A stretch of DNA of 64,000 bases from a virus. The notes beneath the pieces are model-generated. The model was given only the letters and a program-made list of their open reading frames with translations. It was not told the origin of the DNA and ran no database searches. The DNA is taken from the IMG/VR virus record IMGVR_UViG_3300045988_094037. The stretch is one strand, 5' to 3'. The translations under genes were made by a program, and so were the position numbers. Shown one piece after another: positions 2,144-64,000 of the stretch (position 1 is the first letter of the stretch; each line of letters begins with the position of its first letter).

Positions 2144-2533
2144 CTATCCAGTTCTATTTATCTCTCTTATCCTTCCAACCAAATCATATATCTCTCCATT
2201 TTTATCTCGATTTTTCAATTCGATTTCTCTAAAACCTTCTTCTAACTTTTCAATTCGTTTTTCTAAATCGGTTATAGAGTCCTCTAAATCTTGAGTAAAA
2301 ACATCTATACTTATCCTATTATGATACTTATCTACTATAACTCTACTTCTTCCTTCTACCTTTAAATTCTCTTCCATCCATTCTTCTAACTTATCATCAA
2401 ATTTATTCTTTACAAAATATACCTTGCCTTCTTCTTCATCATCTTTAAAGTAAACTAATACTGGTTCATACTAATTTAATCCATTCTTCATGAATTGATA
2501 ATTTTCTACCTTAATCGGTTTAAATACTTCCAT
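2144..2533 (-). CDS. hypothetical protein (~129 aa), needs read-through of one TAG
   Basis: The track ORF 2144-2377 extends upstream in frame through TAG to an ATG at 2531-2533 preceded by AGGAGGA. Confidence 0.45.
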
Positions 2534-2627
2534 GCCTTAATCCTCCTACTCATCGCTTTTTCACAAATACATAAAAAAGTCGCGACTGTTATCTTAACTC
2601 TGTTATCTAATATATGTTATATTTGTT

Positions 2628-2877
2628 GTATTGTCAGAATACCATGAAATGGATTTTTATTTACTTTCATGGTATTGTCAGAATACTATGACATGGTATT
2701 GTTGGAAAGCTATGAAAATCCTTTTTATTTAATTTCATAGTATTATCAGAATACCATGAAAACAATTTCATCGCTTTCCAACAAATACATGAAAATTTCA
2801 TAGCTTTTTCACAATATGATGAAATCATAGTATTCTCAGAAATACATGAAATTTTTCATAGTATTGCAGAAATACGA
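2628..2877. repeat. Five iteron-like repeats (GTATTGTCAGAATACCATGA-like), each with an internal inverted repeat
   Basis: Copies at ~2628, 2672, 2740, 2830 and 2861, lying between two minus-strand regulator-like genes. Confidence 0.6.
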
Positions 2878-3267
2878 TTAAAAAGAAAATTTCTCTCCAT
2901 CTGGAGCTATATAATTATACTTATCGTCGTCACTATCAATAGGAATCTCGTAAAAATCGTAATATCCTTTTCTCTCAACTGGAACTAAATATCCCTTTTT
3001 TACCAATCCATCTACTGCACTTGTATATTTCGCTCTCTTTATACCAAGCTCTTTTTCTATAATAGTAGGCCCAAAATCATAATCAGTTAACCTCTCAGAT
3101 TGACTAGCAAAAAATATCCACAAAGAGAACTCTCCATCTGTCAACTCTCTACGGGCCGCAAATAACGCTTCCTTATTAATCCTAGCATATATATTATTAG
3201 TATCACATGGTTCCTTATGAATATGATTAATAGTTCGCTAATTAGGACTTCTTCTTTTGTCTGCCAT
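2878..3267 (-). CDS. winged-helix DNA-binding protein (~129 aa), one in-frame TAG
   Basis: The track ORF 2878-3144 extends through TAG (3238-3240) to ATG 3265-3267 with a GGAGGA RBS; contains an ELGIKRAKYTSAVDGLVKKGYL wHTH-like segment. Confidence 0.5.
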
Positions 3268-13917: not shown

Positions 13918-14004
13918 GCGCGTGTGCTGGAATCGGCAGACAGGCGAGCTTGAGGTGCTCGTGTTCGTAAGAGCGTATGGGTTCAAGTCCCATCATGCGC
14001 ACCA
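13918..14004 (+). tRNA. tRNA-Leu (anticodon GAG), class II
   Basis: Acceptor GCGCGTG/CATGCGC; anticodon arm CGAGC-TTGAGGT-GCTCG; long variable arm; T-loop TTCAAGT; CCA. Confidence 0.7.
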
Positions 14005-14108
14005 TGGTTTCTACTGATTTCCCATGCCCAATAAGTCAGAAGTGTGATATATGTGAACGACGAGGCGCAAAGCACACGGGGTGCGTATGACCCTTCCTCG
14101 CCTTATAC

Positions 14109-14653
14109 GGTGGCGTAGTTCAGTAGGCTAGAACGTCGGCCTGTCTTGGAAATTGATAGAGAATATCTTTAGAGAGAGGATTAATAGCATTGGAGAAATT
14201 AAATCCATCTCAGATTGGAGATATTACAGAGCTTAAATGTTAGGTGTATTTAATTGAGAACGGTTGGAATGTTCTTATCCCGATTGGAAATCATCAAAAG
14301 TATGATTTAGTGATAGAGAAGAACGGCAAATTCTATAAAATTCAAGTAAAACACGCTATGCCGGTAGAGGAAACTGGATTTCTTGTTCGTACTAAATATG
14401 AAGTGCGAGAAAACGGAAAAGTTAAAAAAATGACTTATTCTGCTAAAGATGTAGACTATTTTATGACAGAGTTTAATGGAAAGTTTTATATGTTCCCCGT
14501 TTTTGGAACAGTAGAGACTAAGTTTTGGACTGTTGCCACAAGATTATCTACTCAAAAGCAGGCTAAAGATTTTAAAGCTGAAGATATTCTATCCACACTA
14601 TAATCACTAAGGCACGCCGAAGGTCACGGGTTCAAACCCCGTCGTCATCGCCA
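14109..14653 (+). tRNA. tRNA-Asp (anticodon GTC) interrupted in the anticodon loop by a 468-nt intervening sequence (14145-14612)
   Basis: 5' part GGTGGCG-TA-GTTC..GAAC-G-TCGGC-CTGT, then 468 nt, then CAC-GCCGA-AGGTC-ACGGG-TTCAAAC-CCCGT-CGTCATC-G-CCA. Joining the halves restores the canonical Asp loop CUGUCAC. Confidence 0.6.
14244..14603 (+). CDS. ORF within the tRNA-Asp intervening sequence (119 aa; possible small nuclease / homing endonuclease)
   Basis: GTG-start ORF filling most of the insertion; carries a D..ExK-like YDLVIEKNGKFYKIQVK segment; no family confidently recognised. Confidence 0.45.
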   Translation: MYLIENGWNVLIPIGNHQKYDLVIEKNGKFYKIQVKHAMPVEETGFLVRTKYEVRENGKVKKMTYSAKDVDYFMTEFNGKFYMFPVFGTVETKFWTVATRLSTQKQAKDFKAEDILSTL

Positions 14654-14655
14654 AT

Positions 14656-14684
14656 TTGAAAAACAATAAAAAATATTGTATAAT
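14656..14684 (+). promoter_or_regulatory. sigma-A-type promoter TTGAAA-N17-TGTATAAT
   Basis: TTGAAA at 14656-14661, a 17-nt spacer, TATAAT at 14679-14684; sits directly after tRNA-Asp with no ORF downstream. Confidence 0.5.
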
Positions 14685-14867
14685 ATTTATATAAGGTTAA
14701 GAAAGAACAAAGTATCGCAAGTCGTATATAGGCAGCGATAGCGCGCAAGCGAATCAGCAATGCGGTGTCCCTTTTAGGTTGATGCCTGGCACATTGGACT
14801 GTAGTAGCCGATAAATTAGAGCGTAGTTCTCCTTGATTGACACGACCAATCATCTTAATCACAATAT

Positions 14868-63216: not shown

Positions 63217-64000
63217 ATGATTATAGGGTTATTATTAATTACTATAATCGGGTTAATAATTTATATCTATTATCTCAAGAAACAAGAGCATCAAATAATT
63301 GAAGTTAATATAGATAATTAGAGGAAAAACTCAGAGATAGAATAGGAAATAAAACATAATAGAGAAGTATTATCTAATATAAAAGAAAATATATACTCTG
63401 AAAATGAAATTCTTTCTTCTCTAGTAAAATCTTAGGAAGAAATGCGGGAAAATGCACAAAAGCAAGCTGATGAGGCATACTAGATTCGCATTTCCGCACT
63501 TTTAAAATCCTATGAAGAAAAAGAAAATGAGCTTACTATGACTTTTGATGCTAAAAGTCAAGATTTATCAAATAAAATTTCTATCGAATCCAGTAAATTA
63601 GCGGATTTACAAGCTAAACAACTTGCTTATATTTAGGCTCAACAAAGATAGGAAGAGATTGACTCTAATCAAGATTACTATCGTTTAGCTCTTGATGAAA
63701 TTGATATAAATGATATTACATTATTGCGTGAGTTGCAACCTAGATTTGTCAAAAAAGAAAGCATAGATAAGTTAATATGGGAAGTGTATTATAAACCAGC
63801 TTATGATATATTAACAGCTCGGTTATTCCCAAAAGCAATTAAATATTGTGGGATTTATAGGATAACTGATTTGACCACTGGGAAATCCTATATAGGATAG
63901 TCAGTTGATATAAAAGAACGTTTTAGACAACATATTAAATCTGCTTTAACTTACGGAAAAGCAACCAATAAACTATATTCTACCATGTAGAAATCTGGAG
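63217..64000 (+). CDS. partial gene (runs off the window): TM + coiled-coil + C-terminal GIY-YIG nuclease domain, at least 9 in-frame TAG
   Basis: C-terminal GIYRITDLTTGKSYIG(Q)SVDIKERFRQHIK, with TAG at the conserved Gln of YIGQS. Confidence 0.5.

Follow-up and report, generated by a model that had tools for sequence, protein, structure and literature searches.

A split tRNA-Asp gene with a mobile insert

The DNA analysed was a stretch of 64,000 nucleotides (the window) from IMG/VR record IMGVR_UViG_3300045988_094037. It belongs to an uncultivated phage and includes a large array of tRNA genes, at ~12.8-32.4 kb. Within this array, at positions 14109-14653, a gene for tRNA-Asp(GTC) is split in its anticodon loop by an insert of 468 nt. 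The insert is best read as a mobile, ribozyme-less intervening sequence that holds little beyond a homing-endonuclease gene. Intron-aware ARAGORN reported a single tRNA spanning exactly these positions with a 468-nt insert, and its cloverleaf was fully paired (acceptor 7/7, D 4/4, anticodon 5/5, T 5/5). The split gene and its perfect 7-bp acceptor and 5-bp anticodon stems had been proposed in a first-pass annotation made from the letters alone, and were borne out by the intron-aware search, by the pairing of all four stems and by the empty alleles described below. The accompanying statement that the window has no second tRNA-Asp also held: default ARAGORN and Rfam listed 31 tRNAs and a tmRNA (20718-21038, Rfam), tRNA-Asp not among them, and no further tRNA-Asp was returned by intron-aware ARAGORN.

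ARAGORN placed the splice register so that the product was called Ala(GGC). This assignment was discarded, since uninterrupted alleles in near-identical phages read CCTGTCAC. Related loci are given here by L numbers. L065 holds an uninterrupted tRNA reading GCATGCCTGTCACGCATG, with flanks 97-98% identical to those of the filled L028, and the tRNA of L167 is identical at 77/77 positions to the joined exons of L023. These empty-site alleles identify the gene as Asp(GTC) and the insert as a presence/absence polymorphism. Forcing long introns does make ARAGORN join neighbouring tRNAs falsely; a chimera of neighbouring tRNA halves was ruled out here by orphan halves, nested homologues and the empty-site alleles. 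Homologous nuclease genes in other contigs were enclosed by a split tRNA in 51 of 65 cases, and several of the other 14 places showed a split tRNA by eye or lay at a contig end.

Perfect cloverleaf halves were kept in 31-32 of 34 copies, and damaged exons were found in only 2-3. The 3' strand of the anticodon stem is broken in L013/L034 (2432-2975), and the acceptor stem is poorly paired in L010/L022 (~2440-3000). These copies possibly represent stages of decay in a homing cycle.

The homing-endonuclease gene

The open reading frame (ORF) at 14244-14603 matched PF11645 at 4e-19, above the curated threshold, and I-Ssp6803I (PDB 2OST) at 5e-9. The nuclease-like segment suspected in the first-pass annotation could thereby be placed in the PD-(D/E)xK family PF11645. 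The active-site residues E, D (in KYD) and Q-x-K (in IQxKH) were invariant in 17 and in 26 homologues (alignments A1 and A3), and the KYD and IQxKH residues align with YD...VQVK of 2OST. Judged by these matches and residues, the ORF is a genuine PD-(D/E)xK homing endonuclease of the I-Ssp6803I family.

The ORF had been read as 119 aa from a GTG at 14244. Its N-terminus is absent from this reading, because the PF11645 match starts only at profile position 18. Upstream of the GTG the frame continues through a TAG codon (...LNPSQIGDITELKC*VYLIENGW), and 213 database homologues of 135-140 aa (identity up to 92%) align end to end with the extended ORF. The TAG position is Gln in homologue proteins, and CAA, CAG and TAG interchange there at the codon level. 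Homologue coverage, Gln at the TAG and a tRNA(CUA) in the window together place the gene at 14190-14603 with TAG read as sense, so that it runs for 137 aa from a TTG rather than 119 from the GTG. The GG(A) core of the Shine-Dalgarno-like site before this TTG was invariant across homologous inserts (alignment A2, below). As for the free sequence around the ORF, the 9 nt counted earlier on the 3' side stand (9-10 nt), and the ~100 nt counted on the 5' side shrink to about 45 nt once the ORF is extended.

In-frame TAGs elsewhere in the window are confined to late/structural ORFs. The amino acid inserted at the TAG is not certain from the tRNA(CUA) alone, and the homologue alignments favour Gln. 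This suppressor tRNA combines an acceptor stem like that of the phage tRNA-Gln(UUG) with an anticodon arm almost identical to the one in tRNA-Trp(CCA).

An RNA rod formed by the insert ends

Alignment A2 comprised 28 distinct mini-precursors, in each of which the two exons were kept together with 52 bases from the start of the insert and 46 from its end. A structure of cloverleaf plus three end-to-end helices paired 95% of the cells of this alignment, against 42-47% when the partners were slid by 1-3 columns. Pairs changing on both sides numbered 27, against at most 15 in the slid controls, and none of 500 shuffles reached the observed values. RNAalifold, unaided, recovered the same end-to-end helices, and these were also given by the minimum free energy (MFE) and centroid folds of the 545-nt window transcript (z = -3.8); helix H2 was thus predicted independently by RNAalifold and by the MFE fold of the precursor.

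Among the non-Watson-Crick cells of the insert helices, G-U occurred 80 times and A-C 6 times. Since G-U is far above A-C, the pairing belongs to RNA transcribed from the + strand and not to an inverted repeat in DNA. Terminal inverted repeats of a transposon were ruled out by these same counts and by the presence of a homing nuclease rather than a transposase. Selection acts at the RNA level, on the transcribed strand, for pairing of the insert ends with one another and with the anticodon. Together, the anticodon stem and the end helices form a continuous rod of ~35 bp with the nuclease ORF as its terminal loop. No terminators above chance were found inside the insert.

Splice register and pairing with the anticodon

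At the DNA level, the boundaries of the insert are ambiguous by one base, and may be written 14144|14145...14612|14613 (tRNA positions 35/36) or 14145|14146...14613|14614 (36/37). Comparison of sequences across related elements favours the 36/37 register. Related inserts with more distant PF11645 genes occupy other tRNAs (Ile, Arg, Asn, Gly and Pro), and in these the 36/37 register gives the canonical loops CUGAUAA (Ile), CUACGGA (Arg), CUGUUAA (Asn), UUGCCAA (Gly) and UUUGGGA (Pro).

In this register, eight of nine elements, drawn from six tRNA identities, have an anticodon that pairs with the last three bases of the insert. The pairs of anticodon and insert-end triplet are GUC:GGC/GUC, GAU:AUC, ACG:CGU, GUU:AGC, GCC:GGC and UGG:CUG. 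The Asp inserts end in GGC (26 copies), GUC (6), GUU (1) or GGU (1). The helix is gapless from U33-A37 through the anticodon into the insert, and the junctions that regenerate CUGUCAC sit on its opposite strands, 3 bp apart at 36/37 or 1 bp apart at 35/36.

A 3-bp target-site duplication of the anticodon was considered as the source of the insert end. It fits GTC...GTC, found in six copies, and not the other five identities. In Arg (ACG...CGT), Ile (GAT...ATC), Asn (GTT...AGC) and Pro, the insert end is the complement of the anticodon and not a copy of it.

Table 1. Positions of the split gene, its insert, the paired elements and associated RNAs.
Feature	Position	Strand	Basis or remark
5' exon, tRNA-Asp(GTC) positions 1-36	14109-14145	+	ARAGORN -i, paired stems, empty alleles
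Acceptor, 5' strand	14109-14115	+	5' exon
D arm	14118-14134	+	5' exon
Anticodon stem, 5' strand	14136-14140	+	5' exon
Loop CUGUC	14141-14145	+	5' exon; anticodon GUC at 14143-14145
Mobile insert, 468 nt	14146-14613	+	36/37 register; filled/empty allele pairs, register comparison over six tRNA identities
3' exon	14614-14653	+	begins A37 C38; includes variable loop
Anticodon stem, 3' strand	14616-14620	+	3' exon
T arm	14626-14642	+	3' exon
Acceptor, 3' strand	14643-14649	+	3' exon
G73	14650	+	3' exon
Encoded CCA	14651-14653	+	3' exon
Homing-endonuclease gene, 137 codons + TAA	14190-14603	+	PD-(D/E)xK, PF11645, I-Ssp6803I family; probable TTG start
Shine-Dalgarno-like site GAGAGAGGA	14172-14180	+	9 nt before TTG 14190; read from sequence
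In-frame TAG codon	14241-14243	+	CAA, CAG or TAG at this position in homologues
Junction helix, 5' strand (U33, G34 U35 C36, then UUGG, the first bases of the insert)	14142-14149	+	pairs with 14607-14614
Junction helix, 3' strand (CUAAGGC at the insert end, then A37)	14607-14614	+	last three insert bases, GGC, pair with the anticodon
Helix H1b, 5' strand	14154-14159	+	pairs with 14598-14603; covariation UA/CG, AU/GC
Helix H1b, 3' strand	14598-14603	+	contains the stop codon
Helix H2, 5' strand AGAAUAUCUUU	14160-14170	+	pairs with 14580-14590; 6/11 pairs change on both sides
Helix H2, 3' strand GAAGAUAUUCU	14580-14590	+	codons ..AEDIL.. at the ORF end; synonymous change suppressed
Suppressor tRNA(CUA)	31263-31338	+	required to read the TAG of the nuclease gene
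ROOL/GOLLD-like/skipping-rope/YrlA-like loci	L002 200-788, L018 3477-4077, L005 3838-4440, L014 3801-4257, L002 2576-2657		in related phages

Mobility of the element

Identity between inserts was 99.6% in L001/L003 against about 45% in their flanks, 89% in L014/L018 against 73% in the exons, and 96% in L017/L048 against 87% in the exons. Inserts were thus 89-99.6% identical even where the flanks could not be aligned, and this identity, far above that of the flanks and often of the exons, indicates that the element moves between diverged tRNA-Asp genes. Presence and absence in near-identical phages, together with inserts more alike than their flanks, form the pattern of homing into intact tRNA genes, and by these comparisons the element spreads horizontally among TAG-recoded gut phages. 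Such spread fits homing by a relative of I-Ssp6803I, an enzyme that recognises the pseudo-palindromic DNA of an anticodon stem-loop as a tetramer (PMC3384342).

Compensatory changes were seen in the exon stems, at 6 of 7 acceptor pairs and 4 of 5 anticodon-stem pairs. Their use as proof of selection after insertion was dropped, the inserts being more conserved than the exons and flanks. Contigs of 531-542 nt that carry the gene were considered as possible RNA-derived molecules and were found to be ordinary low-coverage metagenome fragments. Contigs with the insert include IMGVR_UViG_3300045988_093451, _142128, _166184, _122850 and _162434, and phages of this kind occur in the samples ENA ERZ27250626, ERZ27297538 and ERZ27298769 and IMG 3300045988.

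The interrupted gene of Asn type at L023 261-801 and its empty counterpart in L167 (reverse strand, ~4084) have the same acceptor and T arms. The L167 counterpart has a different anticodon arm, with the loop CUCUUAA (Lys, CUU). In this pair, an exchange of anticodon arms through homing with co-conversion may have changed the identity of the tRNA.

The group I intron reading

The first-pass annotation had taken the insert as a candidate group I intron. On that reading it would self-splice with guanosine, U35 being the last exon base and the terminal G of the insert acting as omega-G, with the ribozyme core overlapping the ORF. There is precedent for it: in Patescibacteria, introns of this class split tRNA-Asp and tRNA-Asn at 35/36, and tRNA group I introns are known to carry PF11645 genes (PMC13011429). 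The exon ending in U and the insert ending in G, to which the annotation had pointed, are also present at 35/36 in the window copy and in 27 of 34 relatives. As a rule this feature failed: the base matching the terminal G is U in 7/34 related copies, and in the 36/37 register, which fits all related elements, the last base of the insert is C or U.

An Rfam scan of 14000-14760 gave no match to RF00028 or to any other ribozyme family at E<=10, and 60 kb from 12 related loci gave none at E<=1. There is also no room for a core, since all of the non-coding bases of the insert (~55 nt) are assigned to the three end-to-end helices, the Shine-Dalgarno site and a spacer. Known tRNA group I introns measure at least 184 nt without an ORF and more than 500 nt with a nuclease gene, those with PF11645 included (PMC13011429). 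The proposal that a core overlaps the ORF was not upheld. In a comparison of 32 homologous ORFs, fourfold and twofold sites were free to change in the interior, and constraint was seen only over the final ~8 codons; from this freedom we infer that no ribozyme core is concealed in the coding sequence. No internal guide sequence was found beside the 5' splice site, and the partner of U35 is the last or penultimate base of the insert itself. The group I reading is not supported by these comparisons, and we give it hardly any credence.

Comparison with known intervening sequences

The nuclease family of the insert is that of I-Ssp6803I, encoded by the group I intron in tRNA-fMet of Synechocystis PCC 6803, and of the PF11645 proteins in group I introns of tRNA-Arg(UCU) in Bacteroidota and Campylobacterota. 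Those tRNA introns are 600-900 nt long and contain a complete self-splicing ribozyme (PMC13011429), whereas the phage insert has 468 nt, is essentially ORF-only, gives no ribozyme signal and has the anticodon-paired rod instead. The patescibacterial group I introns that split tRNA-Asp and tRNA-Asn at 35/36 occupy the same tRNA species at almost the same point, and the genes they split are likewise missed by standard tRNA finders; they are 184-894 nt long, have been shown to self-splice and mostly lack nuclease genes (PMC13011429). The phage insert differs from them in having no ribozyme and in its best register of 36/37.

In archaea, bulge-helix-bulge (BHB) introns, including rRNA introns with homing-endonuclease ORFs, are removed by EndA and RtcB. 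The anticodon-intron pairing of archaeal and eukaryal protein-spliced tRNA introns is a feature that the phage insert also has. In a BHB, the splice sites lie in two 3-nt bulges, one on each side of a 4-bp helix (PMC4090602). The strict hBHBh' geometry was found in 0 of 34 copies in every register, so that an archaeal BHB intron was rejected; a relaxed BHB occurred only at an offset that gives U37, and the empty alleles have A37. Archaeal BHB introns also lie at 37/38, whereas the phage insert lies at 36/37 and has no 3-nt bulges. The window bears signs of a bacterial host (tmRNA, sigma-70 genes, encoded CCA), and EndA/Sen and RtcB- or Trl1-type ligase domains were not found in its ~40 ORFs.

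The 'enigmatic' tRNA introns of Lak megaphages are about 90 nt long and ORF-less (PMC6784885). Like the phage insert, they occur in TAG-recoded gut phages, match no Rfam class and have identical sequences across cohorts (PMC6784885); the insert is set apart from them by its nuclease gene and its defined rod. Nearer to the Lak type may be the short inserts without an ORF that occur in the window and its relatives (for example 23406-23522, below). A literature search returned no description of ORF-only tRNA inserts in phages, and the only phage tRNA introns in it were of the short ORF-less Lak type (PMC6784885). We assign the protein to the I-Ssp6803I family, and class the element among the homing-endonuclease-bearing tRNA introns, as one without a ribozyme.

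Rod-like inserts are also known from rRNA, where intervening sequences excised by RNase III have a long stem formed by the insert ends in a stable RNA gene, and sometimes an ORF inside. The phage insert has such a long, near-continuous stem (~35 bp with the anticodon stem). In place of a 2-nt stagger its junctions are 3 bp (36/37) or 1 bp (35/36) apart. Fragmentation without re-ligation is tolerated in rRNA and not in a tRNA cut in its anticodon loop, and an unsealed anticodon loop would be non-functional.

Proposed removal from RNA

We lean, by a little, towards removal of the insert from the transcript by one or more trans-acting proteins, followed by ligation. In the DNA step, the enzyme would cut the anticodon stem-loop DNA of an empty allele to either side of the anticodon, and repair would copy the insert in. 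In the RNA step, trans-acting protein(s) would recognise the rod in the transcript and cut both strands 3 bp apart, after C36 and after the last base of the insert (opposite G34). An RNA ligase would then reseal the anticodon loop to give a working tRNA-Asp, with the expected junction GGCCUGUC|ACGCCGA. RNA-level removal is favoured because the anticodon-insert pairing recurs in six tRNA hosts, because the rod is under RNA-level selection, because an array that serves 18 other amino acids has no tRNA-Asp besides the interrupted one, and because exon decay is rare (2-3/34 copies). The gene set of the window includes enzymes of an end-healing and sealing type (an AAA_33 kinase, two metallophosphoesterases, an ATP-dependent ligase and a Thg1-like enzyme), and a DUF2828/vWA protein and a vault-like protein are encoded as well.

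Several points weigh against this reading. Removal is deduced from structure and context only, and the intact, covarying exons may predate the insertions, since horizontal movement of the insert outpaces the divergence of its hosts. A distant subfamily (L010 321-843) lacks the anticodon pairing. Domains of a splicing endonuclease, RNase III, RtcB or Rnl1/2 were not found among the ~40 ORFs of the window, and its ATP-dependent ligase looks like a DNA ligase. We know of no RNA-processing enzyme that cuts a continuous helix 3 bp apart; the overhangs left by RNase III are of 2 nt, and EndA depends on bulges. A tRNA gene can be dispensable to a phage, and the rod could instead serve the stability or processing of the nuclease mRNA.

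In the main rival account, the cassette sits in a dispensable phage tRNA gene, is never removed from RNA and has inactivated tRNA-Asp. The rod would then serve the nuclease gene, for instance as an RNase III site at which the nuclease mRNA is released from the polycistronic tRNA transcript, as a stem that stabilises this mRNA or as a translational control of the Shine-Dalgarno region. Horizontal spread fits such a dead gene, since intact exons may then reflect recent invasion, as do the decayed exons of L013/L034 and L010/L022 and the lack of splicing enzymes in the window. The rRNA intervening sequences, whose long terminal stems are cut by RNase III with no re-ligation, offer a parallel. What a dead gene leaves unexplained is an insert end complementary to the anticodon in six tRNA hosts, gapless across both junctions, and the fact that the phage's only tRNA-Asp is the interrupted one. 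The perfect cloverleaf halves of 31-32/34 copies also argue against it, and we regard it as unlikely, though a serious contender.

An RNA catalyst other than a group I intron was also weighed, either as an unrecognised small ribozyme made by the rod or as a trans-acting phage RNA. The CUU at the start of the insert and the AAG near its end are invariant despite lying in a helix that could covary, and RNAs of the ROOL/GOLLD class neighbour these tRNA genes in related phages. Self-cleaving ribozyme families gave no Rfam match in 14000-14760 or in the 12 related loci, however, and the rod lacks the conserved internal loops that small ribozymes need; nor is there a ROOL or GOLLD RNA at threshold in the window. 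Hammerhead, hairpin, twister and other small ribozymes were accordingly set aside, having neither an Rfam match nor a conserved core. A hammerhead-like GUC| triplet at the 5' junction is unmatched at the 3' junction, which reads GGC in most copies. RNase P or RNase Z acting on the rod was dropped, as the strand polarity does not fit. Removal by an RNA catalyst other than a group I intron strikes us as very unlikely.

Should the insert be removed by protein as proposed, the splicing nuclease might be the element's own PD-(D/E)xK homing endonuclease, with a phage or host ligase then resealing the loop; we consider this improbable. The top strand of the anticodon-insert helix is that of the DNA target up to C36. 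On this view the helix would repeat, in RNA form, the left half-site and the central triplet of that target. By a 2001 account of Bonocora and Shub, I-Ssp6803I reportedly cuts both DNA strands beside the anticodon and leaves 3-nt 3' overhangs. The RNA junctions would fall where such cuts would fall in DNA, which is a lead and not evidence. The coincidence is partly automatic, because the insertion lies at the cut site and the helix is gapless.

Significance

The tRNA introns of bacteria and phages are, to our knowledge, regarded as self-splicing. If the split tRNA-Asp is used, its excision and rejoining would follow a route without known precedent in bacteria and bacterial viruses. Inserts that cannot self-splice, here a widespread family with an RNA structure that presents both junctions, make protein-dependent bacterial tRNA splicing directly testable, and such splicing may also account for the tRNA introns of Lak phages. 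Were the element's own nuclease to cut the RNA, one small protein would be both a DNA homing nuclease and an RNA splicing nuclease. The element bridges group I introns of the I-Ssp6803I type and archaeal ORF-bearing BHB introns, and bears on the origin of ribozyme-less introns.

In practical terms, standard tools miss or mis-assign these split genes (as with the Ala(GGC) call of ARAGORN). tRNA inventories of recoded gut phages consequently under-count Asp, Asn, Ile, Arg, Gly and Pro, and annotations of the nuclease ORFs are truncated at recoded TAGs. As compact enzymes directed at the anticodon stem-loops of different tRNAs, the nucleases offer a ready panel. From one filled/empty pair (L023/L167) it seems that an anticodon arm can be replaced by homing, and tRNA identity could be changed in this way.

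Other features of the window and of related phages

No close relative was found among deposited phages (no long DNA match; GyrA at most 35% identical), and no cultured relative was found. A second odd tRNA lies at 23406-23522 (Rfam 49.8 bits), where three anticodon-stem pairs surround a 55-nt gap. It was read as Pro(UGG), CGU|...|GC UUUGGGU GCACG, with an ORF-less insert of ~44 nt between positions 29/30. The insert contains a GGUCUU/AAGACC hairpin and a conserved ACAGCAAUCUUU. Inserts of the same short type occur at L006 56-172, L002 6-129, L003 111-232 and L017 1285-1407. The short insert has no BHB and its geometry is unlike that of the nuclease insert; it may be akin to the 'enigmatic' introns of Lak phages.

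A structured motif, AAGAC.C-N3-CAGCAAU...G.GUCUU, lies between tRNA genes at 31176-31255 of the window and in many spacers of L005, L010, L018, L028, L065, L070, L078 and L165. Its CAGCAAU core is common to the spacer motif and the short tRNA inserts. The tRNA arrays of related phages hold ROOL RNA (240-349 bits), GOLLD-like RNA (below the gathering score) and skipping-rope RNA, together with weak YrlA-like matches; none of these four was present at threshold in the window.

Positions 32641-49886 and 52406-53662 of the window hold a gene cluster with a flavour of RNA repair and nicotinamide adenine dinucleotide metabolism. It comprises DUF2828/DUF7788 (vWA/TROVE-like), an 813-aa protein resembling the major vault protein, a weak RlaP match, two metallophosphoesterases, a protein resembling phosphoribosyl pyrophosphate synthase, NadE, a Thg1-like protein, an AAA_33 kinase and a PIN+PhoH fusion. 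A 529-aa ORF of the same cluster (45319-46908) appeared NAMPT-like by eye only. At 63217-63999, an ORF with a GIY-YIG nuclease domain and eight in-frame TAGs runs past the end of the window, and is a candidate second homing endonuclease.

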